From Patescibacteria group bacterium (GTDB lineage Bacteria > Patescibacteriota > Microgenomatia > UBA12405): a stretch of DNA of 64,000 nt. A program made the position numbers and the translations under genes. Positions 8,044-58,365 of this stretch are shown here, one piece after another (the stretch's first letter is position 1; each line of letters begins with the position of its first letter). The stretch lies in the NCBI GenBank assembly GCA_038062455.1, contig JBBTXE010000001.1:250371-314370 (forward strand). The letters are read 5' to 3'. The notes beneath the pieces are model-generated. The model saw only the letters and a program-made list of their open reading frames with translations. It did no database searches and was not told the origin of the DNA.

Positions 8044-8053
8044 AGTATAAAAT
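8044..8053. promoter_or_regulatory. Putative bidirectional -10 region in a 20-bp divergent spacer
   Basis: The + strand reads TAAAAT at 8048-8053, which is -11..-6 of ATG 8059. The complement of 8044-8049 reads TATACT, which is -11..-6 of the minus-strand ATG 8038. No Shine-Dalgarno-like purine run on either side. Confidence 0.4.
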
Positions 8054-25934: not shown

Positions 25935-25943
25935 TATCTAAGA

Positions 25944-25949
25944 TACAAT
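25944..25949 (+). promoter_or_regulatory. Putative -10 box TACAAT, 6 nt upstream of GTG 25956 (leaderless geometry)
   Basis: tacaat at -12..-7 of the start codon, in a 21-bp divergent spacer. Confidence 0.4.
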
Positions 25950-28644: not shown

Positions 28645-30349
28645 CTCCCTCCAATTCAATCAAAGCATTTCGGGCCAGTGAATAATTCGGAAAACGACTG
28701 ATGGTTGTTTTTAACACCCCTTTCGCCTCCTCAATCCTGCCAAGTTGGGCATAAACCACCGCTAAAATATATAATGTTTGGGGATTATTCGGATCCAATT
28801 CAACCGACTTGTTAATATGCTGCAACGCCAAATCATATTTTTTTTCATTTAAATCAATTTGAACCAAACTAATATAGGTTTGGATCAAACCCGGATTAAA
28901 ACGCAGTGCCGTCTCATAGCTTTCTCTACCCAAGTCAAGTCTTCCTGTTTTAAAAAATATGTTGGCCCGATTGTGATAAGCATCGGCATAATTAGGTTTT
29001 ACGATCGTTGATTGAGTAAATCCTTTGATGGCGCTGGCATAATCTTTTAATTTATCGTAATCATCGCCGATATTATTCCAGGCATTATGACTATTTGGCG
29101 AGACCTGGCAGGTATTTACCCACAACAAATGGTTTGTCGACCAGTCAATATTTCTAAAATATATTCTTAAAGCATAAACCGACACCAATCCCGCCGCCAA
29201 CACCACCGGAAGTATCTTTAGCCTTTTATACATTACCCCAATAATTAAACTTAAAAATATTGCCAACCCCAGAGACCCTAAATAGGCATATCTCTCCGCC
29301 ACCAGCCAACTTACCTTTAGCGGTGCCATCGACGGTAAAGTCGCCGCCATAAATAAAAATAAAGCAAAAAACCACAACTTATCTTTAAACCAAAATCGAA
29401 CCATTAGGGCCAAATATACCAACAAAACTGCCCAATTTAACCAACCGGGTAAAACGTACATGGTGTGATATAAAGTCAGGTCAGTCGGTACCAAAATAAG
29501 CTGCAAATATTTTGTTACCGCAATTGGATACTGAAAAGTCGGCGGGTAGAAAATACTTCCCGACTCATTAATTCCTGAATTAACAACACTTACCCGGCTT
29601 TTTATATAAGGAAAAGCGATAATAAAAAAGATAACCAATATTGGCAGCAACCACTTCCACATGCTTTTGGCAAAACCGGATATTAGTTTCCATGGGTACA
29701 AAGCCAACAATCCCGGAATTATTAAAAATACCGCAAAAGGACGTGGTCTATCCGTCAAAAAAGCTAGAACAAATGCTAAAATAAACACTAACCCGTATTT
29801 TAACTTTCGGGTCTTTAATAAATAAATAAAAGAAATCAAAACTACCAATATATAATTTGAAATAATTAAATAAATTTTTCCCGCATTCCAGGAAACAGCT
29901 TCTACATGAATTGGCATAAAAGCAAATATTAAAGTTGTCAAAATTGTTAATTTCCCCCGACCGGTAATCAAATATACAAACCAAAAAACTAAAAAAATCG
30001 ACACCAAATAAGTCAACAAACTAAAAACATGGTAAGGAACCGGTGATACCACCCCAAAAATATTTGCCAAAATATAATTTGAAATATTCATACTATTAAA
30101 CATGTTTCCCGGAGTCAGCACCGAGGCTCTAAAATCGGCTACCAGCGGATTTTGGGGTACAGTGGCATAATCATCTGACACAAAATCACCTCTAAGACCG
30201 TTTCCAAACACCACTACTACCCCCAGACCAATTAAAAACAGTGCCCAATAAAACTTTTTAAAAAAAATTTTAAACTCAGGCACTACCATACTTTCCTCCG
30301 GCGTTAAAGACAACATTTTTTTTATTCTTTTTATCTTTTTTTGAGACAT
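28625..30349 (-). CDS. TMTC-like membrane protein: polytopic GT-C-type N-terminal domain fused to C-terminal TPR repeats
   Basis: 574 aa. Loop motif FVSDDYATVPQNP after TM1, about 10 TM segments, then about 4 TPR-like units (AWNNIGDDY.., AYHNRANIF.., YISLVQIDL.., LYILAVVYA..). Confidence 0.65.
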   Translation of the reverse strand: MSQKKIKRIKKMLSLTPEESMVVPEFKIFFKKFYWALFLIGLGVVVVFGNGLRGDFVSDDYATVPQNPLVADFRASVLTPGNMFNSMNISNYILANIFGVVSPVPYHVFSLLTYLVSIFLVFWFVYLITGRGKLTILTTLIFAFMPIHVEAVSWNAGKIYLIISNYILVVLISFIYLLKTRKLKYGLVFILAFVLAFLTDRPRPFAVFLIIPGLLALYPWKLISGFAKSMWKWLLPILVIFFIIAFPYIKSRVSVVNSGINESGSIFYPPTFQYPIAVTKYLQLILVPTDLTLYHTMYVLPGWLNWAVLLVYLALMVRFWFKDKLWFFALFLFMAATLPSMAPLKVSWLVAERYAYLGSLGLAIFLSLIIGVMYKRLKILPVVLAAGLVSVYALRIYFRNIDWSTNHLLWVNTCQVSPNSHNAWNNIGDDYDKLKDYASAIKGFTQSTIVKPNYADAYHNRANIFFKTGRLDLGRESYETALRFNPGLIQTYISLVQIDLNEKKYDLALQHINKSVELDPNNPQTLYILAVVYAQLGRIEEAKGVLKTTISRFPNYSLARNALIELEGVKVGSS

Positions 30350-31317
30350 AAATCCATTCTAGCAAAAAAATTAGCCATCTTTACTTCGCTGTGACGAATC
30401 CGCAAATATTTTTTATCAATCACCGCAATATCTTCAATCAAAACATTTTTTATTCCATTTTCTTTATACCTGATCGGCCTTGAATGTTCCAAACTATACG
30501 ATTTAAACACATTCTTCAATATTTTTTGGTCTAATTTACTAAAATCGGGCATCAACACTAAATCAAAATCACTTCCTATATATTTTTTGAAAGTTTTAGA
30601 GTATTCAATTTGACTAAACAATCTATTTTCATTGGCCACCGACATTATATTAGTCATCAACAGCTTAACTGCTTTAGTTTTTTCCAATTTTTCCTTCATT
30701 CCCAATGGTAATAGATTAATAATCACCGACCCATACATACTACCCGGGCAAAAAATAATCAATTTGGCTCCACCAATTGCTGAAAGCGCCTCCGGATTTG
30801 TCGTTACTTTTTTTGATAACCATATTCTTTTAACCCGATCAAATGACATTCTCATATCATCAAGATGATGTTCGCCATTATATTTTTTATTACTTTCTGT
30901 CTCAAAACATAATTCAGCCGGTTCAAGTGATACCGGAATTACCTCACCCCTTAAATCAGCGCCGGTTAAATCCTTAAACAATTTCTCAACATCGGTTATA
31001 TTTTTTGCTTTTTCAGCCAAAAATTGAAAAAAACTATTACCAAAATTTCTCCCTCGGCCATCTCTGAATCTTAAAACTTCCCCCCAAACCTGTTTTTGCC
31101 TACCGTCACTCCACAAAGAAATTAAAGCCCGCCAATAATCAGAAAAAGCCAGTACCTTCCCTCTCTCATCTGTCCGGATTCTGCCGGTGTCGCCACCACT
31201 GTCAAAAGTAGTTACGATTGACTTTATGTTGATAAAACCAGCCTTTATTAATGACCTATTGATAATCGGCATTCCGGTTCCGCCGCCGATAGTACAAATT
31301 AGGTCATTATTTTTCAC
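30331..31317 (-). CDS. CofD/YvcK-family protein (2-phospho-L-lactate transferase-like, UPF0052)
   Basis: 328 aa with a GTG start. TIGGGTGMP and TTFDSGGDTGRIR blocks typical of the YvcK/CofD family. 19-nt overlap with the TMTC-like gene. Confidence 0.7.
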   Translation of the reverse strand: MKNNDLICTIGGGTGMPIINRSLIKAGFINIKSIVTTFDSGGDTGRIRTDERGKVLAFSDYWRALISLWSDGRQKQVWGEVLRFRDGRGRNFGNSFFQFLAEKAKNITDVEKLFKDLTGADLRGEVIPVSLEPAELCFETESNKKYNGEHHLDDMRMSFDRVKRIWLSKKVTTNPEALSAIGGAKLIIFCPGSMYGSVIINLLPLGMKEKLEKTKAVKLLMTNIMSVANENRLFSQIEYSKTFKKYIGSDFDLVLMPDFSKLDQKILKNVFKSYSLEHSRPIRYKENGIKNVLIEDIAVIDKKYLRIRHSEVKMANFFARMDLCLKKR

Positions 31318-31323
31318 TTACAA

Positions 31324-31329
31324 ATTATA
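31324..31329 (-). promoter_or_regulatory. Consensus -10 box TATAAT exactly 6 nt upstream of GTG 31317
   Basis: The complement of attata at 31324-31329 occupies -12..-7 of the start codon. No Shine-Dalgarno sequence. Confidence 0.5.
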
Positions 31330-31357
31330 CCCTACCGCTAAAAGCAAAATTTTATAC

Positions 31358-31363
31358 TATAAT
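31358..31363 (+). promoter_or_regulatory. Consensus -10 box TATAAT exactly 6 nt upstream of GTG 31370
   Basis: tataat at -12..-7 of the in-frame GTG that gives a normal-length Wzm N-terminus. No Shine-Dalgarno sequence. Confidence 0.5.
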
Positions 31364-31369
31364 CAATCT

Positions 31370-32170
31370 GTGTTGCTCCTACTTCAGGAAATAAAATCGA
31401 TTATTCTCCGACGGGAATTACTTTGGCAAATGGTCGGGCGCGAAGTCAAGGCCCGTTACAAACAATCCATTCTTGGATTTTTCTGGGTGATTCTAAACCC
31501 ACTGGCTCAAATGTTAGTCATGAGTTTTGCTTTTTCCATTATTCTACGCATTCCCACCAATGCCGCCTCAAACATTCCCTATTCAATTTTTCTCTTTGTC
31601 GCCCTCCTTCCTTGGAATCTCTTTGCCAATTCCCTCTCTTTCTCTGCCGGATCTCTAGTAAGCTCCGGCCCGTTAATCACTAAAATATATTTCCCCAGAA
31701 CTATTTTAGTCCTATCGACCATTATCGCTAAAATCATCGATTTTGGTTTTGCTCTTATAATTCTGGTTATATTTATGGTTGCCTACCAAATCCCCATAAC
31801 CATAAATATTCTTTGGGTTCTACCCCTCTTTTTTATCCAACAAATTTTTACACTTGGGTTATCTCTCTTTTTTGCCGCCGCCAATCTTCTCTACCGCGAT
31901 ATCCAATATCTTTTAAACATGGTTTTACTTTTATGGATGTATGCTACTCCGGTTTTTTACCCCGCCGATTTAGTTCCGGATAAATATCGTCTGATCTTTC
32001 AGCTAAACCCCATGTCCGTTATTATCAACGCCTATCGTCAGGTAATCTTGGGGGGAGGGGAGCCCAAATACAGTAGTATCATCGTTGCTTTTACTCTTTC
32101 CCTTATTGTCCTACTTCTTGGCTTTTCCTACTTTAAATCCCGGGAAAAAATCTTCGCCGACAATATCTAA
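31370..32170 (+). CDS. ABC-2 type polysaccharide exporter permease (Wzm/TagG type)
   Basis: RELLWQMVGREVKARYKQSILGFFWVILNPL signature and about 6 TM helices. The ORF-track start at 31187 overlaps the divergent gene; GTG 31370 (or TTG 31373) is preferred. Confidence 0.8.
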   Translation: MLLLLQEIKSIILRRELLWQMVGREVKARYKQSILGFFWVILNPLAQMLVMSFAFSIILRIPTNAASNIPYSIFLFVALLPWNLFANSLSFSAGSLVSSGPLITKIYFPRTILVLSTIIAKIIDFGFALIILVIFMVAYQIPITINILWVLPLFFIQQIFTLGLSLFFAAANLLYRDIQYLLNMVLLLWMYATPVFYPADLVPDKYRLIFQLNPMSVIINAYRQVILGGGEPKYSSIIVAFTLSLIVLLLGFSYFKSREKIFADNI

Positions 32171-32369
32171 AAAAATCCTCCGAAACATAACTATTATGTC
32201 AAAAGATACCACTAAAAAACCCACTACATACGCTTTTATCGATAGTCAGAGTAGACTTACTGAGAAATTCTTTAGAAAAGAAAAAGACCAAGATCAGCGT
32301 TCGGTCGAAACCTTAGGCTGCTTAGCTTGGTCATCGTGATAAATTATATTATATAAAACAAACCCCACT

Positions 32370-33104
32370 ATGTCAACCGACTCCATCATAAAATTTGACC
32401 ATGTTACCAAACGTTTTTCCCGAAACTATCACAAAACCTTTAAAGAGTTTCTCCCCGCCCTAATCAAAGGCGAAGATATAGTCAACACTTTTATTGCCCT
32501 TAATGACATTAGCTTTGAAATTAAACGCGGCGAAGTAATTGGTATCATTGGTCCCAATGGATCAGGTAAATCAACTATTCTCAAGCTTATTGCCGGAGTC
32601 ATGTCACCCACTTCCGGCTCAATTACCGTCACCGGTAAAGTATCACCTCTCATTGAATTGGGCGCCGGTATGCATCCCGAGCTTACCGGCCGGGAAAATG
32701 TTTTTTTAAATGGCTCTATTCTTGGCCTTAAACAAAAAGAAATCAACCAAAACTTTTCAAGTATCGTCAAATTTTCAGAACTTTCCGAATTTATTGACAC
32801 CCCCGTAAAACATTATTCCTCGGGTATGTACATGCGCCTGGCCTTTGCCATTGCCGTCCATGTTAACCCGGAAATTCTTTTAGTCGACGAAATTTTAGCT
32901 GTTGGCGACACCGCCTTTCAGGCCAAATGCTTTAAAAAAATGGAAGAATTTAAAAAAGACAAAAACATTACTATAATCCTGGTATCTCACAGCTTAAAAC
33001 AAATTGAAGAATTTTGCCAAAAAACAATTCTCCTATCCCATTCTCATCTTATTGACTATGGCAATTCCAAAACTATTGTAAAACAATATACAAAAACTCA
33101 GTGA
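32370..33104 (+). CDS. ABC polysaccharide exporter ATP-binding protein (Wzt/TagH type, short form without a C-terminal binding domain)
   Basis: 244 aa. Walker A GPNGSGKST, signature-like YSSGMYMRLAFA, Walker B LLVDEILAVGD. Confidence 0.85.
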   Translation: MSTDSIIKFDHVTKRFSRNYHKTFKEFLPALIKGEDIVNTFIALNDISFEIKRGEVIGIIGPNGSGKSTILKLIAGVMSPTSGSITVTGKVSPLIELGAGMHPELTGRENVFLNGSILGLKQKEINQNFSSIVKFSELSEFIDTPVKHYSSGMYMRLAFAIAVHVNPEILLVDEILAVGDTAFQAKCFKKMEEFKKDKNITIILVSHSLKQIEEFCQKTILLSHSHLIDYGNSKTIVKQYTKTQ

Positions 33105-33153
33105 ACATTCTTCTATCAACTCACCACTTTCTCGGATACACCGGCAATGAATT

Positions 33154-34560
33154 ATGAAAAATATTCGTCGCTTTTCTAGAATTTTACTTATCAATCTTCC
33201 GAGTACAATCCAGGACGGATACAAACCCAGCCCTTTGGGTATTCTTTACCTGGCTTCGTACCTCCGCCAGAATGTCCCTCACATAAAAGTTAATGTTGTT
33301 GATGGTGCCCTTCTCGGATCTGCCGCCATTTATCGAAAAGTAAAAAAATTTCACCCCGACCTCACCGGTCTTTCCGTCATGACTCCCGGCCGCATCGAAG
33401 CCGTCGACATCGCCAAAAAAATAAAAAAAATTTTACCCCACTGCCGCATTGTCCTCGGCGGCATCCATCCCACTATTATGTGGCAACAAATGATGCAACA
33501 CTACTCAATCATTGACTACATTATCAAAGGGGAAGGTGAAATCACTCTATCCGAACTCGTCCAAAATAGTTCCCTACCACAAATCAAAGGTTTGGTTTGG
33601 CGTAAGTCATTTCAAATTATCAACAATCCATCTCAACTATTGATTCAACACCTCGATCAAATTCCCTTCCCCGCCTGGGACCTGATTGACCTCCAGCAAT
33701 ATCCTCCTCGAGGCCAAGGTGTCTTTAACGGCATCAATCTTGAAAAAGAAATCCGAGTTCCTATTATTTTTTCCCGTGGCTGTATGGGTGCCTGCACCTT
33801 TTGCTCCACCTGGAAAATTTGGCGAGGTTATCGTTATCGCAGCGGTAAAAATGTCGCTCGAGAAATCTCTCTTTTAGTCCGAAAATATCACGCCAAACAC
33901 TTCGTTTTTCAAGACGATACTCTCACGGGTAATCGCCAAGAAATGGTTGATTTCTGCCAACAAATCATAAAACGTAAACTAAAAATCGCTATAATTGGCT
34001 GTACCCGAGTCGACCACGTCGACCTCCCCCTTCTAAAACTTATGAAAAAGGCGGGCTTTTATGAACTTAGTTTTGGCATCGAATCCGGCTCACCCGATAT
34101 GCTTAAAAAAATAAATAAAAAGACCAATATCAATGAAATCATCACCGCCGCCCAAAACACTAAAAAAGCTGGCATTAAATTCACTGCTCTGATGATGAGT
34201 AACCTCCCCACCGAAACAGAAAAAGACAAACAACTTAGTCAAAAACTGCTCGACCAACTCCAACCAGACAACTGGAGCACCTTAGGCAATGTTTGGATTT
34301 TCCCCGGCACCGCCCTCTTCCAACAGGCTAAAAGCGCCAAAATAATTACCGATTCTTTCTGGCTAAGCCGTCGACCCTACTACATTTATCGCGGAGGTAT
34401 CGGCCATGACCCCATCCAATACGAACAATTGATTGACGACTGGTATCAGTCATATCAAAGCACCTTCTGGGGAAGAATATTTTATCGTTTCCTCTCCCTT
34501 TGCAACCAAAAAATGAAATATATAAGCTATAATAGCCTCAGACTACTTCTATCCATCTAA
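33154..34560 (+). CDS. B12-binding-domain radical SAM enzyme (class B-like)
   Basis: 468 aa. ILLINLPS..PLGILYLASYL, VLGGIHPT, CMGACTFC at 33781-33804, LSFGIESGS. Confidence 0.8.
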   Translation: MKNIRRFSRILLINLPSTIQDGYKPSPLGILYLASYLRQNVPHIKVNVVDGALLGSAAIYRKVKKFHPDLTGLSVMTPGRIEAVDIAKKIKKILPHCRIVLGGIHPTIMWQQMMQHYSIIDYIIKGEGEITLSELVQNSSLPQIKGLVWRKSFQIINNPSQLLIQHLDQIPFPAWDLIDLQQYPPRGQGVFNGINLEKEIRVPIIFSRGCMGACTFCSTWKIWRGYRYRSGKNVAREISLLVRKYHAKHFVFQDDTLTGNRQEMVDFCQQIIKRKLKIAIIGCTRVDHVDLPLLKLMKKAGFYELSFGIESGSPDMLKKINKKTNINEIITAAQNTKKAGIKFTALMMSNLPTETEKDKQLSQKLLDQLQPDNWSTLGNVWIFPGTALFQQAKSAKIITDSFWLSRRPYYIYRGGIGHDPIQYEQLIDDWYQSYQSTFWGRIFYRFLSLCNQKMKYISYNSLRLLLSI

Positions 34561-34562
34561 CT

Positions 34563-35657
34563 ATGATTTATGATTGTTTTACCTTTTTCAACGAACTCGA
34601 CCTGCTCGATCTCCGACTACACGAACTCAACGACACCATTGACTATTTCGTCCTGGTAGAAAGCCGCTACACTTTTACCAACCAACGAAAACCCCTATAT
34701 TTCGAACAAAATAAAAATATGTTTCAAAAATTTCTCCCCCAAATTATCCATGTCATCATCGATAATTTTGACCAGACCGAAGACATTAAAAACACTCCAT
34801 TTTACCAACAGGCTAAAGACACCGTTGATCAAAATATAGATACCTGGAAACGTGAGGTCCAATCCCGAAATGCCATCCTCCGTGGCCTAACCCAATGCCA
34901 AGACAACGACATTATTATCATTAGCGATCTCGACGAAATCCCCAACAAAGACAAAATTAAACTATTAAAGAAATTTACCGGTATTAAAGCCTTTGAACAA
35001 AAAAACTACTACTATTTTTTTAATTGCCAAAGCGATCAGTCTATTTATTGCTGCCGTGCCATCCTTAAAAAAAATCTAATCAGTCCACAAGAGGTTCGCT
35101 TTTCCCCCAATTATCAAATCATCAAAAACGGCGGTTGGCATTTTTCCTTTCTCGGCGGTCTAAACAAGATCGGCCAAAAAATCAGCTCCTTCAGCCATCA
35201 GGAACTAAACAACCCCTACTTTACCAATAAAAAGCGACTGCTTTTCAATATCAACAACCAACTCGACATTTTCGACCGTCCAATTAGATTCAAAATCAAC
35301 TCCGGTCTCGATCATCTCCCCACCTACATCCAAAAACACCCAAAAAAATTCCAAAAATACTTTTTTAAGAAAGCTGCTTCCAAAGACACTAATACCCGCT
35401 GGCTAATTCAAGAAATCCAACGTCTTCGCCAAAAAATCATGGAGAATCACCCTGATCAAATCATCACACTTAAAACAAAAATCATTTCACTTAAAGCAGA
35501 AAATCTCCGTCTTCTTCTCCGCTTGGCTGAAATAAAAAACTCCAAAATTTTAATTGAGGAAGAATTGGCTGAAATAAAAAACTCAATCCTTTTTAAACTC
35601 TGGCCGTTGTATAATTTAATCAAAAATATACTCAAAAATGAAAAAAAACAATCCTGA
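34563..35657 (+). CDS. GT17-like glycosyltransferase with a C-terminal coiled coil
   Basis: 364 aa. The N-terminus MIYDCFTFFNELDLLDLRLHELNDTIDYFVLVESRYTFTNQRKPLYF matches the Glyco_transf_17 pattern as I recall it. The last roughly 75 aa are heptad-like. Confidence 0.65.
   Translation: MIYDCFTFFNELDLLDLRLHELNDTIDYFVLVESRYTFTNQRKPLYFEQNKNMFQKFLPQIIHVIIDNFDQTEDIKNTPFYQQAKDTVDQNIDTWKREVQSRNAILRGLTQCQDNDIIIISDLDEIPNKDKIKLLKKFTGIKAFEQKNYYYFFNCQSDQSIYCCRAILKKNLISPQEVRFSPNYQIIKNGGWHFSFLGGLNKIGQKISSFSHQELNNPYFTNKKRLLFNINNQLDIFDRPIRFKINSGLDHLPTYIQKHPKKFQKYFFKKAASKDTNTRWLIQEIQRLRQKIMENHPDQIITLKTKIISLKAENLRLLLRLAEIKNSKILIEEELAEIKNSILFKLWPLYNLIKNILKNEKKQS
35523..35584 (+). repeat. 20-nt perfect direct repeat, 42 nt apart, in frame
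   Basis: ttggctgaaataaaaaactc at 35523-35542 and 35565-35584. Encodes LAEIKNS twice in the coiled-coil tail. Confidence 0.8.
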
Positions 35658-37839
35658 AATTGAAAAATATTTTACCAATTTGAACAAAATCGCTGGAGAA
35701 TTATTTGTTACCAAGGAAAATTTACAACTCCTTCAATTTAAACTTAATACTATCTATCAAAGCCCGGCATTTATATTTTACAAATTTACTAAACCAATTA
35801 TCAGCCATCCTTACAATATGATCAAAAATATAATACCAATTACTTTACGAAAAAAAATCAAAAAATACCTATCTAAAATCATCATTTTTAATCAAAAGAA
35901 TCAAATCAACTATGCTTTAAAGCAAGAATGGAAAAAATTTACAAAAAAACAACCCCAAGAAATAAAACACGATATAATAATCTTTAGTCTTATTTCCTGG
36001 AACTTTCGCTTCCAACGTCCCCAGCAACTTGCCACCGAGTTAAGCCATCTCGGTCACCGTGTCTTTTATATTAACAACGAGTTCATTCCCCAAAGACTGT
36101 CCCGCTCCGGCTTCCAGGCCATTAATGCAGAAAAAATTTCTGACAATCTCTATCAGATTAACATCTCTTCAGGTTCTCGACACTTTATCTACCATGACAC
36201 CGCTAATTCCAAAGATGTTGCTATCATGCTGGGTTCTATTAAAACTCTCCTTAACAAAGCCCGCATCGTCAATCCTGTCGCTCTAATTGAGCACCCGTTT
36301 TGGTATCCATTAGCCCAAAAACTTTCCATGCCTCTCGTCTACGACTGCATGGACAATCACTCAGGTTTCCAAGAAACATCACCGGAAAATGTCAAAGCCG
36401 AATCGGAAATGATCCGGTCAACAAATTTCAATATTGCCTCTTCCGACTATCTCCTAAAATATCTAAAGCGCCACCGTTCAACCGATACCCTTCTTGTCTG
36501 CAATGGTGCCAACCTTTCCCATTTTCAGGAAAAAAGACTTACCCCGCCTGATGACATCGCCAAACTCCCGCCCCCGATAATCGGATACTACGGAGCTCTT
36601 GCCAACTGGTTTGATACCACTTTACTTGAAAAAATTGCCCAACACCAACCCCACGCCTCTATTGTTCTTATTGGTGAAGTCACTAACAAAAAAATTTTAA
36701 AACTTTCCTATAAATATCCAAACATAAAATTATTAGGTGAGAAACCATATTCCTCCATTCCTTCTTGTTTAAAAAAATTTGATGTCGCCCTCATCCCTTT
36801 TAAAATCAACCCGCTAACAAAAGCCACTAATCCGGTTAAAATCTTCGAATATTTCTCTCAAGGAAAATCTGTCGTCAGTACCAACCTACCAGAGCTAAAA
36901 AAGTACGAAAAAATTCTTTATCTCTCCCAAAATCATACCGAATTTCTAAAAAATATTGACCTCGCCCTATCCGAAAACACATCCAAAATAATTTTACGTC
37001 GCCAAGTTGCTTCCCAAAACCAATGGTCCGCCAAGGCTAAACAAATTTCAGAAAAACTGTCTTCCTACTTTCCCAAGGTCAGCATCGTCATCTTAGTCTA
37101 CAACAGCACTCAAATGTCCAAAGATAGCATTGACACTGTTCTCAATCGATCCTTTTATCCCAACAAGGAAATCATTGTTGTTGACAATGCCTCAAAGCCG
37201 GACACAGTCAGAATGCTTAAAAAATATCAAAATAATCCGGAGATAAAATTGGTTTTAAATGAGGAAAACTACGGCTTTGCTAAAGGCAACAATATCGGCA
37301 CCCGTCTGGCAACGGGAGAATATATAGTACTACTAAATAACGATATATTAGCCACACCGGGATGGATTGAAAGATTGGTTTACTGCGCCTCAAAAAACAA
37401 GATAGGCCTCGTTGGTCCGATAACCAATAGCATTGGCAACGAAGCCAAAATCGATATCGAATATGACCATACCGATCGAAAACAAATGGAACGAAGAGTT
37501 CGAAAATACACTTCCCGGCACTGGGGTGAAACTCAAAATTTACAAAATCTTGCCGCCTTTTGTTGGATCTGTCCTAAAACAGTCTACGACAAAATAGGGG
37601 AGTTAGACGAACGTTTCGGTCGGGGTATGTTTGAAGATGATGACTATTGCCACCGCCTCAAAAAAGCCGGTTATCAAATTCTTTGTGCCGAAGATTCGTT
37701 CATCCATCACTTTGGCGGAGCTTCCTTTAAACAAATCGTCTCGCAGGAATATCTTGACTTATTTGAATCAAATAAAAAGAAATTTGAAGCCAAGTGGAAA
37801 ATTAAATGGCAACCCCACCGTTATCGCCAAGGTCTATGA
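35638..37839 (+). CDS. Multidomain glycosyltransferase: coiled-coil N-terminus, GT4-like middle domain, GT2 C-terminal domain
   Basis: 733 aa. The middle region resembles a GT-B enzyme (IGYYGALANWFD, VALIPFKINPLTKATNPVKIFEYFSQGKSVV). The C-terminal part has VSIVILVYNS, IIVVDNASKPDT and YGFAKGNNIG. Confidence 0.7.
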   Translation: MKKNNPEIEKYFTNLNKIAGELFVTKENLQLLQFKLNTIYQSPAFIFYKFTKPIISHPYNMIKNIIPITLRKKIKKYLSKIIIFNQKNQINYALKQEWKKFTKKQPQEIKHDIIIFSLISWNFRFQRPQQLATELSHLGHRVFYINNEFIPQRLSRSGFQAINAEKISDNLYQINISSGSRHFIYHDTANSKDVAIMLGSIKTLLNKARIVNPVALIEHPFWYPLAQKLSMPLVYDCMDNHSGFQETSPENVKAESEMIRSTNFNIASSDYLLKYLKRHRSTDTLLVCNGANLSHFQEKRLTPPDDIAKLPPPIIGYYGALANWFDTTLLEKIAQHQPHASIVLIGEVTNKKILKLSYKYPNIKLLGEKPYSSIPSCLKKFDVALIPFKINPLTKATNPVKIFEYFSQGKSVVSTNLPELKKYEKILYLSQNHTEFLKNIDLALSENTSKIILRRQVASQNQWSAKAKQISEKLSSYFPKVSIVILVYNSTQMSKDSIDTVLNRSFYPNKEIIVVDNASKPDTVRMLKKYQNNPEIKLVLNEENYGFAKGNNIGTRLATGEYIVLLNNDILATPGWIERLVYCASKNKIGLVGPITNSIGNEAKIDIEYDHTDRKQMERRVRKYTSRHWGETQNLQNLAAFCWICPKTVYDKIGELDERFGRGMFEDDDYCHRLKKAGYQILCAEDSFIHHFGGASFKQIVSQEYLDLFESNKKKFEAKWKIKWQPHRYRQGL

Positions 37840-38882
37840 AAATTGCTATCATCCTTGGAACCAGACCGGAAATCATCAAGCTTTCTCCTGTCATTCGCCA
37901 ATGTCAGAAAAGTAATATCGATTTCTTTATTATTCACAGCAACCAACATTACAGTCCTGAAATGGATAAGATCTTCTTTAGTGAGCTAAAACTACCCCAA
38001 CCTAAATACAATCTCAATGTCGGATCAGGCCTTCATGGGGAAATGACGGCTAAAATATTAATTGGTACTGAAAAAATTTTGCTTAAGGAGCTTCCTGATT
38101 GGGTTCTGGTTCAAGGTGATACCAATACTATTTTGGCCGGCGCTTTAGCCGCTTCCAAACTTCAAATAAAAGTTGGCCATGTCGAAGCCGGACTCCGTTC
38201 CTACGATCGGACCATGCCCGAAGAGACTAACCGAATTATTACTGACCACATCTCTGACGCTCTTTTCGTCCCCACTCAAAATCAAAAAAAGATTTTATTG
38301 AAAGAGGGGATTGAACCCCGAAAAATATTTGTTACCGGAAATACTATTGTTGACGCCATAATCCAAAATTTAAAACTAATCTCCCCTCAAAAACCTACTC
38401 AAAAATACTTTTTACTCACTCTTCATCGTCCGTCAAACGTCGACGATGCAAAAAAACTAAATCAAATAATCAAATCACTCGAAAGCGTTTCTCAAAAATA
38501 CAAATTACCTTTTATTTTCCCCATCCATCCCCGAACCAAACAAAATCTTAAATTTTTTAAAATTAATTTAAACCCTAAATATTTTTCCGTATTGAAGCCA
38601 TTAAGTTATCTGGAAATGCTATATTTGGAAAAAAATGCCACTCTAATTTTTACCGATTCCGGCGGCATTCAGGAAGAGGCTTGTATACTTAAGATCCCCT
38701 GCGTCACTATTCGTGACAATACTGAACGACCGGAAACTATCAAAGTCGGCGCCAACACATTGGCGTCAGCAACCAATCTCTCTTCCCGAACAAAAAAAAT
38801 GCTAAAAATAAAAAGGGACTGGCCCAATCCTTTCGGCGCCGGCCAATCATCTCTAAAAATATTAAAAATCATCACCTCTTAA
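37836..38882 (+). CDS. wecB: UDP-N-acetylglucosamine 2-epimerase (non-hydrolysing type)
   Basis: MKIAIILGTRPEIIKLSPV, VQGDTNTILAGALAA, HVEAGLRSYDRTMPEETNR, VTGNTIVDA. The ATGA overlap places the start at 37836. Confidence 0.85.
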   Translation: MKIAIILGTRPEIIKLSPVIRQCQKSNIDFFIIHSNQHYSPEMDKIFFSELKLPQPKYNLNVGSGLHGEMTAKILIGTEKILLKELPDWVLVQGDTNTILAGALAASKLQIKVGHVEAGLRSYDRTMPEETNRIITDHISDALFVPTQNQKKILLKEGIEPRKIFVTGNTIVDAIIQNLKLISPQKPTQKYFLLTLHRPSNVDDAKKLNQIIKSLESVSQKYKLPFIFPIHPRTKQNLKFFKINLNPKYFSVLKPLSYLEMLYLEKNATLIFTDSGGIQEEACILKIPCVTIRDNTERPETIKVGANTLASATNLSSRTKKMLKIKRDWPNPFGAGQSSLKILKIITS

Positions 38883-39812
38883 ATGTTTTCGTTCACTAAA
38901 AGCTATCAAGATAAAATGGCGGCGGAAATATCTCACTATGAAAACGTTTTTAAAAATTCACTCTGTCAGGCAGTTCCCCCTTCCTGGCACTATGTCGAAA
39001 AATACTTTTCTCGCCGCATCAAAAAAGCCACCGCAGTAAACAACCTATACCAATACGTTTCACGCTTCGCTCAAGGTAAAAAACATCTTGATATCCTCGG
39101 CCTTGGTTCCGGTGCCTGCGGCCCGGAACTTGAAGGTATTATTCCAGAACTAAAAAAACAAAAGAGCAAAGTTCACCTTTCCTGTTTGGATATCAATCGT
39201 CAAGCTCTAAACACAGCCAGAAAAGAAGCCAAAAAAAGAAAAATTGACTTTACCGCCCTTATCCGTGATATTAATTTTTTTTCTTTCCCTCAAAACAAAT
39301 ATGACATCATTGTCGCCCACGCCTCACTTCACCACTTTGACAAACTAGATCATGTCATTCAAGGCGTCAATCAAGCGCTTAAACCAGATGGCATCTTTAT
39401 TACAGTTGATATTCCCACCAAAAACGGCTATCTTATGTGGCCAGAAACTTATCAGTACGTCTCTGATATTTGGAAAATTCTGCCTCCTAAATACAAAATT
39501 GATCACACTAAACATGCCAAACCTGTTTTTGCTCCAAAATACGAAAACGTTGACTACTCAAAAACATCTTTCGAATGCGCCAATTCCGAAAAAGTTTTAC
39601 CCACTCTCCGCCGTTATCTTCGGGAAATCGTCTTTGTCCCCGGAATGTCAATCAGTCGCCGATTTTTTGATACCAAATTTGGCCCCAATTACAACCTAAA
39701 GAACCCCATCGACAAATCAATTATGGACTTTATTTTAAATCTTGATAATTATCTTCTTGATCAAAACATTTTAAAACCCGAAACCTTCTTCGGTGTTTAT
39801 CGAAAAATATGA
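38883..39812 (+). CDS. Class I SAM-dependent methyltransferase
   Basis: 309 aa. LDILGLGSGACGPEL (motif I), YDIIVAHASLHHF, LKPDGIFITVD. Confidence 0.7.
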   Translation: MFSFTKSYQDKMAAEISHYENVFKNSLCQAVPPSWHYVEKYFSRRIKKATAVNNLYQYVSRFAQGKKHLDILGLGSGACGPELEGIIPELKKQKSKVHLSCLDINRQALNTARKEAKKRKIDFTALIRDINFFSFPQNKYDIIVAHASLHHFDKLDHVIQGVNQALKPDGIFITVDIPTKNGYLMWPETYQYVSDIWKILPPKYKIDHTKHAKPVFAPKYENVDYSKTSFECANSEKVLPTLRRYLREIVFVPGMSISRRFFDTKFGPNYNLKNPIDKSIMDFILNLDNYLLDQNILKPETFFGVYRKI

Positions 39813-47187: not shown

Positions 47188-47193
47188 ATTATA
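47188..47193 (-). promoter_or_regulatory. Consensus -10 box TATAAT upstream of the minus-strand GT2 gene
   Basis: The complement of attata at 47188-47193 lies 5 nt upstream of TTG 47182 and 11 nt upstream of ATG 47176. The divergent spacer is only 12-18 bp. Confidence 0.4.
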
Positions 47194-47194
47194 C

Positions 47195-48586
47195 TTGATA
47201 GTGGGACAAATTTTACTTCTATTTATTTTTTCTTTTTTTCGACTATATCAACTTCCCAACTCCCTCTTTTTCTTCAATGACTGGGGACGCGACATGCTGG
47301 TTCTTCTCAAATGGCAACAGACTGGTCTCCCCCCGCTTTTGGGTCCTCTCACCAGCGCTCTTCCTTTCAACCAAAGCGCTGTCTATTTCTACCTTCTTTA
47401 CCCCGGATATCTCCTCTTTGGCGGTCACCCCATATCTTCCGTTTTTACCTTAATCATTTTTTATCTAATTGTTTTTGTATTCCTTTTTGTCTTTCTTAAA
47501 AAAAATTCAAATCTTGCAACTTCTCTTCTTATAACTTTTTATCTAATTTCCGTTCACCCCCAATTTATCATCCAAAATCGTTTTGTCTGGAACCCATCTT
47601 TTATCCCGCCGCTTATTTTTGTCTCTATTTATTCTTTTTACCAACTTCAAAAAAAATATTCTCTATTTTCTCTCTGGGTTTTTTCCCTCTCCATCAGCCT
47701 GGCCATATCCCTTTCATATTCAGCCGCGCCGCTGCTAATTTCTCTCTTTATCTATTGGCTGATTTTTTCCCGCCAAAAGATAAAACAATATCTATTTTCC
47801 CTGTTTTCCGGATTTTTCCTGTTTAACCTACCTACCCTCTTGTTTGAAATCCGTCATTCATTTTTTCTGACTAATCAGCTCTTAAACCAAAGCCCGGCCA
47901 ATCAATACAATAATGATTTTATTTCCCGGCTAAACTCGATCATTTCCAATCTATTCTTCACCAATAACCCACCACTAAATCAGGCCTTGTTTTTTTCATT
48001 TATATTAATTATCTTCATCGTTGTTTACTTTCATCGTCACCAGAGGGGATTATCATTTTATTTTTCCTGCCTGTTTCTAATAACTCTTTTGATTTCTCTT
48101 CTTTTGCCTCTCACCTTTCACTACCAATATATTTTCCCTCTTCTCTGTCTGGCTATTTTAGTCATTTCCGCTTTACCCAAACTACCAAAAATATTACTGG
48201 TCTTGTTGCTGTCGTATCACTACTTAAAACCGGCCACTCTCCAAAACTACTTTAAACCGGCCCGAAGAACTTATGCCCAAATGAATCAATGCGCCAAAGA
48301 TTTTTGTCAAAATTTCAAAGAACCGATCTTTGTCAGTACCCAAGCCTCTTTTCATTCTTTTCACAACGGACCGGAACATCGTTATCTCCTTCGAAAAAAC
48401 GGTTGTAATGTCCGCGATATCGAAACCGAAAACGGCCAAGCCCAATATATGGCCGTAGTTATTGACGATAGCAGCTTCAGTTCTCGAACCACCTATTACG
48501 AACTGGAACTTTTTGGTAAATTCACCGACCGGAAAACTATCGATTGTCTGCCAAACTTCAAGATAAAAGTCCTGAAGAGAAATTAA
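47195..48586 (+). CDS. Polytopic membrane protein with a C-terminal soluble domain, function unknown (GT-C-like architecture)
   Basis: 463 aa with at least 10 hydrophobic segments, then about 110 aa of soluble sequence. TTG 47195 or GTG 47201 as start; TATACT at 47190-47195 lies -11..-6 of the GTG. Confidence 0.4.
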   Translation: MIVGQILLLFIFSFFRLYQLPNSLFFFNDWGRDMLVLLKWQQTGLPPLLGPLTSALPFNQSAVYFYLLYPGYLLFGGHPISSVFTLIIFYLIVFVFLFVFLKKNSNLATSLLITFYLISVHPQFIIQNRFVWNPSFIPPLIFVSIYSFYQLQKKYSLFSLWVFSLSISLAISLSYSAAPLLISLFIYWLIFSRQKIKQYLFSLFSGFFLFNLPTLLFEIRHSFFLTNQLLNQSPANQYNNDFISRLNSIISNLFFTNNPPLNQALFFSFILIIFIVVYFHRHQRGLSFYFSCLFLITLLISLLLPLTFHYQYIFPLLCLAILVISALPKLPKILLVLLLSYHYLKPATLQNYFKPARRTYAQMNQCAKDFCQNFKEPIFVSTQASFHSFHNGPEHRYLLRKNGCNVRDIETENGQAQYMAVVIDDSSFSSRTTYYELELFGKFTDRKTIDCLPNFKIKVLKRN

Positions 48587-49657: not shown

Positions 49658-49687
49658 ATGCTTTTATCGTCTCATAATGAGACGATA
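49643..49687. promoter_or_regulatory. Three copies of the 11-mer TATCGTCTCAT (two direct, one inverted) forming a 23-bp perfect palindrome next to the Fic start codon
   Basis: Copies at 49643-49653 (within codons 2-5 of the Fic gene) and 49665-49675, plus the inverted copy atgagacgata at 49677-49687. The palindrome spans 49665-49687. Confidence 0.6.
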
Positions 49688-49749
49688 CCTGCAAACACTA
49701 ATTCACCGACAGAATTAATCAAGTTATGGCTACTAATAAATAAATTTTT

Positions 49750-52019: not shown

Positions 52020-52025
52020 ATTATA
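52020..52025 (-). promoter_or_regulatory. Consensus -10 box TATAAT exactly 6 nt upstream of the galE ATG
   Basis: The complement of attata at 52020-52025 occupies -12..-7 of ATG 52013. No Shine-Dalgarno sequence. Confidence 0.5.
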
Positions 52026-52993: not shown

Positions 52994-53012
52994 GTAATCT
53001 ATACTATAACAA

Positions 53013-56617: not shown

Positions 56618-57236
56618 TCAATTTGGCTGGGGACCGGATTGTGTTATCCCCAAGAATCGGCTGGAATTTCTAAAATCCCAAATCAAGGGTAAGAAAATTA
56701 TTGATATCGGTTGCGGACCGGGACATTTATTAAATTATCTATTAGGTTTTTCATATCTGGTTACCGGTATCGATAAATATAAGTACCAAAATAAAAACAT
56801 CATCAAAGCCCAAGCTTCACACCTGCCTTTCCCCGACAACAGTTTCGACACTGCCTTTTTAAACAATGTCCTCGAACACAATCAAAATGATCAACAAATT
56901 TTAACGGAAGCTCTCCGGGTTGCCTCCAGAGTCATAATCACCGTTCCTCAAAACTGCCCCGATAATCTCAAAAATAGGGGAGTGGTCTATCAACATTACC
57001 AAGACCGAAGCCACCGGCGCACCTATACCCCCAAAAGTCTGCGTCTTCTGGCCCGTCAATCAAACGCTAAAGTTATTAAAATTATTCCTCTCGAACCGTT
57101 ACCCAATCGGGAATTGTTTTCCGAACTAATTAAAAGCCCTATCTTATGGCGTAAAATAATTTCCAGAATCATATTCTACCTTTTTCGCCCTCAACCTTAC
57201 TATTTAGAACTAGCCGCTATCATCAAAAGAAAGTAA
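56598..57236 (+). CDS. Class I SAM-dependent methyltransferase
   Basis: 212 aa. IIDIGCGPGHLL (motif I), FDTAFLNNVLEH. Confidence 0.75.
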   Translation: MSIKKSNQFGWGPDCVIPKNRLEFLKSQIKGKKIIDIGCGPGHLLNYLLGFSYLVTGIDKYKYQNKNIIKAQASHLPFPDNSFDTAFLNNVLEHNQNDQQILTEALRVASRVIITVPQNCPDNLKNRGVVYQHYQDRSHRRTYTPKSLRLLARQSNAKVIKIIPLEPLPNRELFSELIKSPILWRKIISRIIFYLFRPQPYYLELAAIIKRK

Positions 57237-57239
57237 AAT
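57234..57239 (+). promoter_or_regulatory. Putative -10 box TAAAAT, 6 nt upstream of ATG 57246
   Basis: taaaat at -12..-7 of the start codon; it overlaps the upstream stop codon. Confidence 0.35.
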
Positions 57240-57245
57240 ATACTT

Positions 57246-58364
57246 ATGACAGTTGGCATCGATGGAAATGAGGCTAATGTAAAAAATCGGGTCGGTGTTG
57301 GAAATTTTGCCTACCACCTCCTCAAAGAACTTCACCTCCAAAATAAAACCCATCACCTCCTGATATTTCTCAAAAGTCCTCCGCTTCCCGACATGCCCAA
57401 AACTAATCAGCGTTGGCGCTATCTTGTTTTTGGACCCAAACCTCTCTGGACCAAAATTGCCCTGCCGCTTCAACTGATAATTACCAAAGAAAAAATTGAT
57501 TATTTTCTCTCTCTAAGCCACTATTCCCCCTATCCATCGCCCGTCCCCACCATCCCGACAATCCATGATATCGGCTACCTTCGCGCTCCGGAAGCTTTTA
57601 CTAAAAAAGATATCTTCAAGTTAAAAAACTGGACTGCTGCTTCCATAAAACATGCTCATCATATATTAGCTGTCTCCGAATTCACCAAAAACGAAATTAT
57701 AAAAAAATATAAAATCAAACCTGACAAAATTTCCGTCATTAAAAATGGGGTCGGCAAAATACCCCAGCCTAGCCCGAAAAAAGAACGTCAAGTTCTCAAA
57801 AAATTTAACATTTCTCCGCCATATTTTTTGGCCGTCGGTACCCTCAAACCCAACAAAAACTACCCCTTTCTCATCAAAGCTTTTTCCCAATTTCTAAAGC
57901 TCTATAGTTCTAAAGATCTAAATTTCTCCTTAGTCATTGCCGGTAAAAAAGGCTGGCTCTACGATGAAATTTTCAAATTAGTTAAAGAAAAATCATTGCT
58001 AAACAACATTATTTTTACCGATTTTATCAATGAAACAGAAAAGTGGGCGCTTTATCGACAGGCCACAGCCACTGTCATTCCCAGCCTCTACGAAGGTTTT
58101 GGTATTCCGGTCCTGGAAAGCCAACGTGTCGGCACACCGGTAATAGCGAGTTGTATTACCCCGCTTAAAGAAATTCTCGGCAGTAGCGCTCTCTATATTA
58201 ATCCGACCAAAACTTCTTCGCTAGTCACTGCCCTCAAAAAAATTATCCACCCCAAAACTCATAAAAAATATCATCATCTGGGTATAAAAAACTGTCGTAG
58301 CTACACTTGGGCCAACAGCGCTCAAAAACTTTTAAAGCTTTTTGACACCCTCGCTGGGGTATAA
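57246..58364 (+). CDS. Family-4 glycosyltransferase
   Basis: 372 aa. PSLYEGFGIPVLESQRVGTPVI and VGTLKPNKN blocks. Confidence 0.8.
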   Translation: MTVGIDGNEANVKNRVGVGNFAYHLLKELHLQNKTHHLLIFLKSPPLPDMPKTNQRWRYLVFGPKPLWTKIALPLQLIITKEKIDYFLSLSHYSPYPSPVPTIPTIHDIGYLRAPEAFTKKDIFKLKNWTAASIKHAHHILAVSEFTKNEIIKKYKIKPDKISVIKNGVGKIPQPSPKKERQVLKKFNISPPYFLAVGTLKPNKNYPFLIKAFSQFLKLYSSKDLNFSLVIAGKKGWLYDEIFKLVKEKSLLNNIIFTDFINETEKWALYRQATATVIPSLYEGFGIPVLESQRVGTPVIASCITPLKEILGSSALYINPTKTSSLVTALKKIIHPKTHKKYHHLGIKNCRSYTWANSAQKLLKLFDTLAGV

Positions 58365-58365
58365 T
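58360..58365 (+). promoter_or_regulatory. Consensus -10 box TATAAT exactly 6 nt upstream of ATG 58372
   Basis: tataat at -12..-7 of the acetyltransferase ATG; it overlaps the GT4 stop codon. Confidence 0.45.

Follow-up and report, generated by a model that had tools for sequence, protein, structure and literature searches.

Two genes in this stretch of DNA are transcribed away from each other across a spacer of only 52 bp, and on both sides a perfect TATAAT ends six nucleotides before a GTG start codon. Are these hexamers the -10 boxes of promoters, and do they place the start of transcription on the start codon itself, so that the mRNAs have no leader? We have studied this question in the window, which is the whole stretch of 64,000 nucleotides, and in related genomes. 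As far as sequence allows it to be judged, the mRNAs of these first genes are most likely leaderless. The features considered are listed below; N6 stands for six nucleotides between a hexamer and its start codon, and other spacings are written in the same way.

30331..31317, minus strand: yvcK/CofD-family gene, 328 aa, GTG start, predicted to be leaderless (Pfam CofD, 2e-36)
31317-28625, minus strand: block opened by the yvcK/CofD-family gene
31324..31329, minus strand: putative -10 box TATAAT, promoter of the yvcK/cofD-like operon, N6 to GTG 31317
31330..31357: 28-bp core of the 52-bp divergent spacer, separating the two back-to-back putative -10 boxes
31358..31363, plus strand: putative -10 box TATAAT, promoter of the ABC-2 permease (Wzm-like) operon, N6 to GTG 31370
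31370..32170, plus strand: ABC-2 type transporter permease, 266 aa, GTG start, predicted to be leaderless (Pfam ABC2_membrane)
31370-43083, plus strand: block opened by the ABC-2 permease
52020..52025, minus strand: putative -10 box TATAAT before a galE-like epimerase (51042-52013), N6 to ATG 52013
25940..25949: opposite overlapping putative -10 boxes in a 21-nt divergent spacer, TACAAT (25944-25949, plus strand, N6 to GTG 25956) and TATCTT (25945-25940, minus strand, a 4/6 match only, N5 to ATG 25934)
8044..8053: opposite overlapping putative -10 boxes in a 20-nt divergent spacer with the common core AGTATAAA, TATACT (8049-8044, minus strand, N5 to ATG 8038) and either TATAAA (8046-8051, N7) or TAAAAT (8048-8053, N5) on the plus strand, before ATG 8059
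47188..47195: core ATTATACT with two opposite putative -10 boxes, TATAAT (47193-47188, minus strand, N5 to TTG 47182) and TATACT (47190-47195, plus strand, N5 to the alternative start GTG 47201)
53000..53008: 19-nt divergent spacer with opposite putative boxes, TATACT (53000-53005, plus strand, N7 to ATG 53013) and either TAGTAT (53006-53001, N7, 4/6) or TATAGT (53008-53003, N9) on the minus strand, before ATG 52993
57234..57239, plus strand: TAAAAT before a GT4 glycosyltransferase, N6 to ATG 57246, a possible internal promoter or a chance match
58360..58365, plus strand: TATAAT before a hexapeptide acetyltransferase, N6 to ATG 58372, a possible internal promoter

The hexamers and start codons of an earlier note on this DNA were all found where it had placed them, with the spacings that it gave. 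The TATAAT before the galE-like epimerase is inside a 56-nt gap between genes of the same strand. Eight of the 11 starts which are first in their unit have a box with at least 5/6 matches at N5-7. When the 20 nt upstream of each start are shuffled with their composition kept, the corresponding value is 0.69, and none of 20000 shuffles reaches 8 (P<5e-5). Such boxes are found in only 4 of 43 internal genes (Fisher P = 6e-5). The hexamer TATAAT is under-represented in the window, with 59 copies on both strands vs 104 expected from composition. Nevertheless, it appears four times at N6 of starts which open an ORF of at least 100 aa, vs about 0.48 times per other spacing (Poisson P = 0.0015). The earlier note went further and proposed that every strand block in this island begins in this way. 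This is true for 8 of the 10 divergent starts, which have a good box at N5-7 (9 of 10 if the gene at 47195 starts at GTG 47201), but not for the remaining starts. Divergent starts without a good box are 25934 (4/6 only) and 52993 (a box at N9, or a 4/6 match at N7). The starts at 32370, 33154, 49657 and 236 have no such box upstream. No tRNA or Rfam families were found in the window.

The window belongs to a Shapirobacteria-like bacterium of the candidate phyla radiation (CPR). The scan of distances between box and start which the earlier note had proposed as a check was carried out on 73 loci from related genomes, with a total of 929 kb and a count which does not depend on annotation. These relatives were found by an alignment-based scan; GTDB genomes scanned with the yvcK protein alone gave no match. 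A sharp peak at N5-N7 before ORF starts is the result. TATAAT is found before 5'-proximal ORF starts 22, 35 and 23 times at N5, N6 and N7, vs about 4 times at other spacings. If yvcK is left out, the counts are 18, 25 and 6 (background 3.0 ± 1.9), and boxes with at least 5/6 matches give 66, 86 and 28 (background 17.7 ± 4.9). The spacing histogram of TGnTAnnnT also has one sharp peak, with 47, 53 and 17 cases vs about 3. The N5-7 peak is several-fold to about 8-fold above background, and the signal is spread across most of the 73 loci. As a control, 50 kb of phage T4, which is AT-rich and uses Shine-Dalgarno (SD) sites, shows no peak.

First genes are preferred in the lineage set as well. Boxes at N5-7 are present at 32% of divergent starts vs 9% of internal genes; for starts after same-strand gaps the values are 18% (gaps of at least 40 nt) and 43% (gaps of 16-39 nt). 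Overall, first genes have such boxes 3-4 times as often as internal genes.

Selection for in-frame stops was considered as a cause of the peak and rejected. It predicts a periodicity of three (N0/N3/N6/N9), or N5 together with N8 for exact TATAAT, and neither pattern is seen. The count of exact TATAAT at N5 may be slightly inflated, since at this spacing the hexamer puts an in-frame TAA at -9..-7; the maximum at N6 cannot be explained in this way.

The geometry is conserved in relatives. Orthologs of yvcK with 52-61% protein identity have unrelated upstream DNA, but in most of them TATAAT is still at N5-N8. In the relative L007, whose yvcK is 80% identical, TATAAT-N6-GTG of the ABC-2 gene is kept despite a different upstream neighbour. 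Relatives L003-L005 (96% identical) have the yvcK box, the spacer length and the GTG unchanged and differ in its central part: Only one of the substitutions with respect to L003 falls outside 31330-31357. None of the six substitutions in the 52 bp affects a hexamer, but chance would give this with a P of about 0.2, and these relatives, which keep both boxes, are too similar to be informative. In the 21-nt spacer at 25940-25949, L003 has one insertion and one deletion, which shift each spacing by 1 nt and leave the length unchanged. The AGTATA(A/C)T core of 8044-8053 appears again in 20-21-nt spacers of L006 and L011-L014. Divergent spacers of 20 nt are not a rule of the lineage: In relatives, spacer lengths are broadly distributed, with only a modest accumulation at 19-25 nt.

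Are the start codons correct? With GTG 31317, the N-terminus of yvcK has the same length as in 26 homologs and retains the conserved CTIGGGxG motif. With GTG 31370, the permease has its whole ABC2_membrane domain (profile positions 2-210 align to residues 17-226) and does not run into the opposite gene, with which it would otherwise share 131 nt; contigs L002 and L007 have the same start called. For galE, the start agrees exactly with Pfam, and the alignments of galE and UDP-glucose dehydrogenase begin at residue 2. Other starts are ambiguous: The gene at 47182 may begin at TTG 47182 or at an ATG two codons downstream, the gene at 47195 at TTG 47195 or GTG 47201, and ATG 58372 is internal to an ORF which opens at TTG 58342. 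Gene callers on related contigs have chosen downstream ATGs for yvcK (313 aa) and the ABC-2 permease (246 aa), which are 15 and 20 codons short.

These ambiguous and downstream starts, together with a range of spacings from N5 to N9, would fit promoters which are real and transcripts which are not strictly leaderless. Either the true starts are downstream, with a short SD-less leader, or initiation takes place a few nucleotides upstream. We consider this unlikely. A shorter yvcK would lose CTIGGGxG, and its 7-codon N-terminus is kept across homologs. A shorter ABC-2 permease would have a truncated Pfam domain, and the alignments from residue 2 also argue for the starts proposed here. In addition, the lineage peak is sharp at N5-6, and other real starts would blur it. 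Standard callers thus appear to misplace starts in these genomes, and a leaderless-aware model would improve CPR annotation.

With respect to codon usage, three of the eight good window sites have GTG and one has TTG; the genes with N5-7 boxes in the lineage set start with ATG (84%), GTG (10%) and TTG (6%). GTG and TTG starts are weak for leaderless translation in E. coli, which counts against the leaderless reading. Sites at N5 and N7 could yield 1-nt leaders or starts within the codon.

Promoters with an extended -10 element (TGn or TRTGn, the '-16 region') occur in E. coli and in Gram-positive bacteria. The lineage boxes are of a similar type. TG at -15/-14 is found in 44% of N5-7 boxes (yvcK excluded), vs 9% where the box is 12-45 nt ahead of an ORF start and 3% for boxes elsewhere. 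T at -17 is found in 61% vs 30% of control boxes, and T at -15 in 61% vs 32% (yvcK included in both cases). No -35 signal was detected around the lineage boxes, and their consensus is T-n-T-G-n-TATAAT. With TG enriched and -35 undetected, the lineage shows the marks of extended -10 promoters; the difference is that these abut the start codon. On the other hand, full TG is absent from all window sites, which have at most a G at -14, in three cases. A sigma-70 consensus scan of the 52-bp spacer gave no -35/-10 pair and no -35-like hexamer for either promoter; generic scans of this type miss these promoters because there is no -35 match. The TG mark, the preference for first genes and the conservation in yvcK orthologs indicate that the hexamers are promoters, and that neither ribosome binding nor chance accounts for them.

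The earlier note had seen no SD-like purine run at its sites. In fact, there is no SD-like motif at any of them, and none is enriched near any start. GGAG, GAGG or AGGA at -20..-4 is found in 5-6% of genes, the same as in control windows. The region from -11 to -1 is A-rich and G-depleted in all genes, including internal ones, where this A-richness is found without T at -12 or -7. The conserved 3' region of 16S was not found in the 85 loci searched. Tsurumaki et al. 2022 (PMC9297842) report a lower detection rate of the anti-SD motif for a subgroup of Parcubacteria only.

The lack of SD enrichment, the A-rich and G-poor upstream regions of all genes and the 9% of internal genes with a box at N5-7 (vs a background of about 1% per spacing) might suggest that the hexamers act in translation, as an enhancer or as a ribosome-binding motif which does not need SD, in the way of the non-SD motif in Bacteroidetes (GeneMarkS-2 group B). 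This seems very improbable to us. The preference for first genes, both in the lineage and in the window, argues against it. TG at -15/-14 is a contact for RNA polymerase, not for the ribosome, internal genes lack T at -12 or -7, and divergent spacers of 18-21 nt hold overlapping boxes on opposite strands. Bacteroidetes have one non-SD motif before all genes, leadered mRNAs and a distinct promoter consensus. They resemble the genomes studied here in the lack of SD enrichment (here across the sampled loci) and in the A-rich, G-poor upstream regions (PMC3155529), but here we find a canonical TATAAT at leaderless distance, mainly at first genes. The feature of group B, which is the same non-SD motif at first and internal genes with leadered mRNAs, is not found here.

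Chance matches in AT-rich intergenic DNA, picked by eye and with a free choice of starts, are refuted for the whole set: A+T make up 61% of the window, a TAA stop is part of two of the six N6 sites, and 31370 and 58372 are not the first start codons in their ORFs, but the shuffles, the concentration at N6 of an under-represented hexamer, the agreement of the annotation-free lineage test with the T4 control and the geometry conserved in orthologs leave this explanation with hardly any credibility. Chance is possible for the single sites at 57246, 58372, 30349 and 35638. Those at 57246 and 58372 are indistinguishable from chance, since they lie at junctions within operons and their hexamers share bases with TAA stops. 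The first three bases of 57234-57239 are the stop of the preceding gene, and at 58360-58365 the stop (58362-58364) falls within the hexamer. About 0.1 sites like 58372 are expected by chance among the 43 internal genes, according to a composition-based estimate.

The central claim of the earlier note, a -10 box which puts the transcription start on the start codon and gives a leaderless mRNA, is thus supported by the lineage peak, the TG mark, the first-gene bias and the conservation in yvcK and ABC-2 orthologs. In 49 bacteria, the distribution of mapped transcription starts is centred 7 bp beyond the -10 element, on its downstream side (PMC12641261). Taken as a whole, the explanation we consider probable is that these are -10 elements without a -35, located at leaderless distance, and that the first genes are leaderless.

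Similar signals are known. The 'TA-led' genes of Zheng et al. 2011 (PMC3160421) and the 'group C' genomes of GeneMarkS-2 (Lomsadze et al. 2018, PMC6028130), with Actinobacteria and Deinococcus-Thermus as typical cases, have the same signature, which marks dRNA-seq-validated leaderless genes in group C genomes. In both cases a TAnnnT or TATAAT box is found about 6-8 nt before the starts of first genes (first T at about 12 nt), leaderless genes have no SD and internal genes show little or no signal. The amounts are also comparable, with about 30% of first-in-unit starts here (strict motif) vs 25-50% of operons in group C. The excess of N5-7 boxes, the specificity for first genes and the absence of SD at leaderless genes are all found here. 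The differences are that the present genomes are small, AT-rich CPR/Patescibacteria (Microgenomates), and that they have the complete TATAAT, in many cases preceded by the TG of an extended -10, instead of a bare TAnnnT. Internal genes of group C use SD sites, while no gene class is SD-enriched here, so the dual model of group C, with an SD-type RBS at the remaining genes, does not apply. Archaeal leaderless genes (GeneMarkS-2 group D) are similar in that first genes are leaderless and such units are frequent. However, their TATA box is about 22-26 nt upstream, and here a bacterial -10 box is found at about 6 nt.

The short divergent spacers may be compared with the symmetry-based bidirectional promoters of Warman et al. 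2021, whose start sites are 7-25 bp apart by definition, according to the summary in PMC10268837. Overlapping opposite boxes are found at 8044-8053, 25940-25949, 47188-47195 and 53000-53008, and also in relatives. These spacers have 12-21 nt as called (18 nt for the 47195 spacer if the gene starts at GTG 47201), and their predicted start sites are 19-22 bp apart, within that range. According to the same summary, such promoters in E. coli and Salmonella most often have an 18-bp register, in which -7T pairs reciprocally with -11A. The core which recurs here is A-N-TATA-N-T, with hexamers offset by 2, in 20-21-nt spacers. Another difference is that the predicted products here are two leaderless protein-coding mRNAs, instead of an mRNA and an antisense RNA.

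The mechanism we propose is as follows. The hexamers would be -10 elements of housekeeping-sigma promoters without a -35 element, often of the extended -10 (TGn) type in the lineage. Judging from their geometry, RNA polymerase would start on the first base (A or G) of the start codon or at most about 1 nt away from it. With the boxes in this position, the first gene of most units in the glycan-biosynthesis island would have a leaderless mRNA, as proposed for yvcK, the ABC-2 permease, galE and the genes which flank the 12-21-nt divergent spacers. The ribosome would bind the 5'-terminal AUG or GUG directly. Within the 52-bp spacer, 28 bp separate the two putative boxes, which are back to back. 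Where the divergent spacer is short, the opposite boxes overlap, typically on a common TATA core (A-N-TATA-N-T), and a segment of about 20 bp may work as a promoter in both directions, giving two leaderless mRNAs. Downstream genes, which have no SD and mostly overlap their predecessor, are probably translated by re-initiation or by SD-independent internal initiation. Of 40 internal junctions, 33 overlap (9 of them as ATGA), an arrangement which is consistent with translational coupling.

This mechanism is already known in other bacteria, and what is added here is that it is common in a little-studied CPR lineage. In a literature search we have found no report of leaderless mRNAs or of SD loss in Microgenomates. 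A wider proposal is that translation is wholly SD-independent in Shapirobacteria, and possibly in Microgenomates more widely, with at least a third of the units leaderless from -35-less extended -10 promoters which abut the starts, and with repeated bidirectional promoters of about 20 bp, each giving two leaderless mRNAs. We find it equally easy to believe or to doubt this proposal. If true, a CPR lineage with reduced ribosomes would be a bacterial counterpart of leaderless-dominated archaea and of Deinococcus.

In practical terms, the sequence rules (T-n-TG-n-TATAAT, N5-7, ATG, no SD) may be used for heterologous expression and for the reading of metatranscriptomes. CPR organisms have reduced ribosomes and do not grow alone, and a sequence signature of this kind would show how their genes are transcribed and translated. 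A deep-branching, AT-rich lineage would join the taxa in which leaderless initiation is common, which bears on the debate about whether this form of initiation is ancestral.

The earlier note had reported TATAAT six bases before both GTG start codons in the 52-bp divergent spacer between the yvcK/CofD-family gene and the ABC-2 permease gene, and the same or a similar box at other genes. All these sites are present in the window sequence exactly as described.

Boxes before start codons in the window (Nx: x bases between the -10 hexamer and the start codon)
31329-31324, minus strand: yvcK promoter box, TATAAT, then TTGTAA, then GTG 31317
31358-31363, plus strand: ABC-2 permease promoter box, TATAAT, then CAATCT, then GTG 31370
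ATG 52013, minus strand: galE, TATAAT-N6-ATG
58360 (hexamer), ATG 58372: hexapeptide acetyltransferase, TATAAT-N6-ATG
Start 25956: TACAAT-N6-GTG
57234 (hexamer), start 57246: TAAAAT-N6-ATG
Starts 8038, 8059, 47182 and 53013: N5 or N7 variants of the box

The two GTG start codons of the spacer are well supported. Read from GTG 31317, the N-terminus (M, six residues, CTIGGGTGMP) lines up with those of 26 homologs, and its glycine-rich motif is conserved; yvcK calls of only 313 aa on some contigs lose this motif. With GTG 31370 the ABC2_membrane domain stays complete and there is no 131-nt overlap antisense to yvcK; the same start is called on the related contigs L002 and L007. On other related contigs the next ATG is called, 15 codons too far downstream for yvcK (L003 10001, L004 1705, L005 296) and 20 for the permease (L003 9843, L006 7213): Gene callers appear to miss these GTG starts, which have no Shine-Dalgarno (SD) site.

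TATAAT is scarce in the window: Base composition predicts 104 copies over the two strands, and there are 59. Of these, four stand at N6 from a start whose ORF has at least 100 aa, against about 0.48 per other spacing (Poisson P = 0.0015). The ten divergent starts and galE, all fixed independently of the motif, form the first-in-unit set. Of these 11 starts, 8 have at N5-7 a TAnnnT box that agrees with TATAAT in at least 5 of its 6 positions. When the 20 nt upstream of each start are shuffled, 0.69 starts on average have such a box, and 8 is not reached once in 20000 shuffles. Among 43 internal genes, only 4 have one (Fisher P = 6e-5). The same count in phage T4 (50 kb, 34% GC, SD-using) gave no N5-7 peak.

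An alignment-based scan found 78 yvcK loci, of which 73 were used (low-GC, 929 kb, near-duplicates of the window excluded). The count needs no annotation: It takes the distance from a hexamer to any ATG, GTG or TTG which begins an ORF of 100 aa or more within 30 codons of the in-frame stop upstream.

Hexamers by spacing in the 73 related loci
TATAAT, all loci: N5/N6/N7 = 22/35/23, background about 4
At least 5 of 6, all loci: 71/99/48, background about 20
TATAAT, yvcK masked: 18/25/6, background 3.0 +- 1.9
At least 5 of 6, yvcK masked: 66/86/28, background 17.7 +- 4.9

The enrichment of N6-type spacing, which the earlier note had proposed as a test, thus holds across related loci, with a peak above background, and most of the 73 loci contribute to the N5-7 signal. 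In-frame stop codons are rejected as its cause: They would give 3-periodic peaks, and the maximum is N6, where TATAAT holds no in-frame stop.

Three independent lines (flanks, context and orthologs) say that the N5-7 boxes are a promoter, not a ribosome-binding motif. When boxes are aligned on the hexamer, TG at -15/-14 is found in 44% of N5-7 boxes, compared with 9% of boxes 12-45 nt upstream of ORF starts (Fisher P = 6e-22) and 3% elsewhere (P = 2e-62), yvcK being excluded from these figures. T is also enriched at -17 and -15, which gives T-n-T-G-n-TATAAT, the signature of an extended -10 or "-16 region"; no -35 signal was found in the aligned lineage set. The spacing histogram of TGnTAnnnT has one sharp peak (N5/6/7 = 47/53/17, about 3 per spacing otherwise) and does not rise again at the usual lengths of a leader. 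As for context, N5-7 boxes precede 32% of divergent starts in related loci but only 9% of internal genes; after same-strand gaps the values are 18% (at least 40 nt) and 43% (16-39 nt). Among yvcK orthologs with 52-61% protein identity the upstream DNA is unrelated, yet mostly a perfect TATAAT is found at N5-N8 before the aligned ATG. The L007 permease retains gcTATAATctatctGTG despite a different, same-strand upstream neighbour. In the 25934/25956 spacer of L003, a 96%-identical relative, one insertion and one deletion move each box-start distance by 1 nt, and the total stays at 21 nt.

The lack of SD-like runs remarked on for individual sites extends to every gene class. GGAG, GAGG or AGGA at -20..-4 is found in 5-6% of genes in the window and loci L006-L085, equal to control windows, and internal genes with unambiguous starts likewise show no excess. 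From -11 to -1, upstream sequences are poor in G and rich in A (about 0.5). Internal genes mostly overlap the upstream neighbour (33 of 40 junctions in the window, 9 being ATGA; of the 202 internal starts that are unambiguous in relatives, 62 have ATGA overlaps). These overlaps would be compatible with the translational coupling suggested earlier.

In a set of 49 bacteria, mapped transcription start sites centre on a distance of 7 bp past the -10 element (PMC12641261), so at N6 the start codon would begin at +1. We infer from these sequences that most units in the window begin with a gene whose mRNA would be leaderless or have no more than 1-2 nt of leader. A box at this distance defines "TA-led" leaderless genes (PMC3160421) and the group C genomes of GeneMarkS-2, in agreement with dRNA-seq in Mycobacterium and Deinococcus (PMC6028130). 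This Shapirobacteria-like lineage resembles group C in its first genes; the remaining genes of group C use SD sites, which are absent here.

The claim that every strand block begins with a leaderless gene was too broad. It stands for 8 of 10 divergent starts (9 with GTG 47201), but not for 25934, with only TATCTT (4 of 6), nor 52993, with TATAGT at N9 or a 4 of 6 box at N7. The first block (start 236) is too near the window edge to be judged. No box was found at 32370, 33154 and 49657, which follow gaps. The hexamers at 57234 and 58360 are intra-operon and overlap the TAA stops of upstream genes: Each may be an internal promoter or a chance match.

In short divergent spacers of the window, -10 boxes of opposite strands overlap.

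Overlapping boxes
8044-8051: AGTATAAA
47188-47195: ATTATACT, given GTG 47201 as the start of the plus-strand gene
53000-53006: TATACT and TAGTAT
25940-25949: TATCTT and TACAAT

The core AGTATA(A/C)T, with 5-7 nt on either side, recurs in 20-21-nt spacers of related loci (L006, L011-L014), although such compact spacers are not a universal rule of the lineage. Their box arrangement may correspond, in another register, to the symmetry-based bidirectional promoters of Warman et al., as summarised in PMC10268837. Unlike the promoters of that summary, those here would make two leaderless mRNAs, each from a protein-coding gene.

The best named homologs of the yvcK/CofD-family protein (about 60% identity) are from Candidatus Shapirobacteria (Microgenomates, CPR/Patescibacteria), and a 96%-identical copy sits on a 795-kb metagenomic contig. 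Many GTDB records with Shapirobacteria-like yvcK loci (28-40% GC), among them those of L008, L018, L026, L032/L080 and L022, bear the titles "uncultured Gammaproteobacteria", "Candidatus Methanoperedens" or "Bacteroidales"; such bins are probably contaminated or wrongly labelled. Searches for rRNA, tRNA and Rfam families gave no match in the window, a dense glycan-biosynthesis island with GT2, GT4 and PMT_2-like glycosyltransferases, B12-binding radical SAM enzymes (four paralogs: 19455, 20908, 27085, 33154), a Wzm/Wzt-like ABC exporter, galE and UDP-glucose dehydrogenase. It has 11 strand blocks, and its five divergent spacers measure only 20, 21, 52, 12 and 19 nt. Between 236 and 15902 there are at least seven PMT_2/ArnT-like membrane-protein paralogs (about 470-570 aa, mutual identity 24-34%).

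PMT_2/ArnT-like paralogs
Starts 236, 3361, 8059, 11236, 12812 and 14337, plus strand
5073-6743, minus strand

The tandem run 8059-15902 comprises four of them and a similar-sized ORF (9660-11249) without detectable similarity. Between the ABC-2 permease and ABC ATPase genes lies a non-coding gap of 200 nt (32171-32369); L003 has a 175-aa NYN-domain gene there, a presence/absence difference within the operon. Directly upstream of ATG 49657, whose gene encodes a Fic domain and an Arg_repressor-like DNA-binding domain, a perfect 9-bp inverted repeat (ATCGTCTCA-TTA-TGAGACGAT, about 49665-49690, minus strand) may serve as an operator or form the hairpin of a terminator. Composition is extremely asymmetric, with 16032 C and 8801 G on the plus strand, the C-rich strand, which carries 41 of 55 genes. 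The third-position (G-C)/(G+C) of the sense strand is -0.49 in plus-strand and +0.49 in minus-strand genes, so plus-strand C:G is near 3:1 regardless of gene orientation. Related loci (L006-L085) have skews of 0.2-0.3 and a G-rich yvcK sense strand.

Leaderless genes led by a -10 box are of a well-known kind. A limited literature search, which is not proof of absence, found no report of leaderless mRNAs or absent SD use in Microgenomates or Shapirobacteria. The only related statement found concerns the anti-SD motif, which some Parcubacteria are reported to lack: It is detected less often only in a Parcubacteria subgroup (PMC9297842). The greater interest lies in the lineage-wide result, rather than in a single 52-bp spacer.
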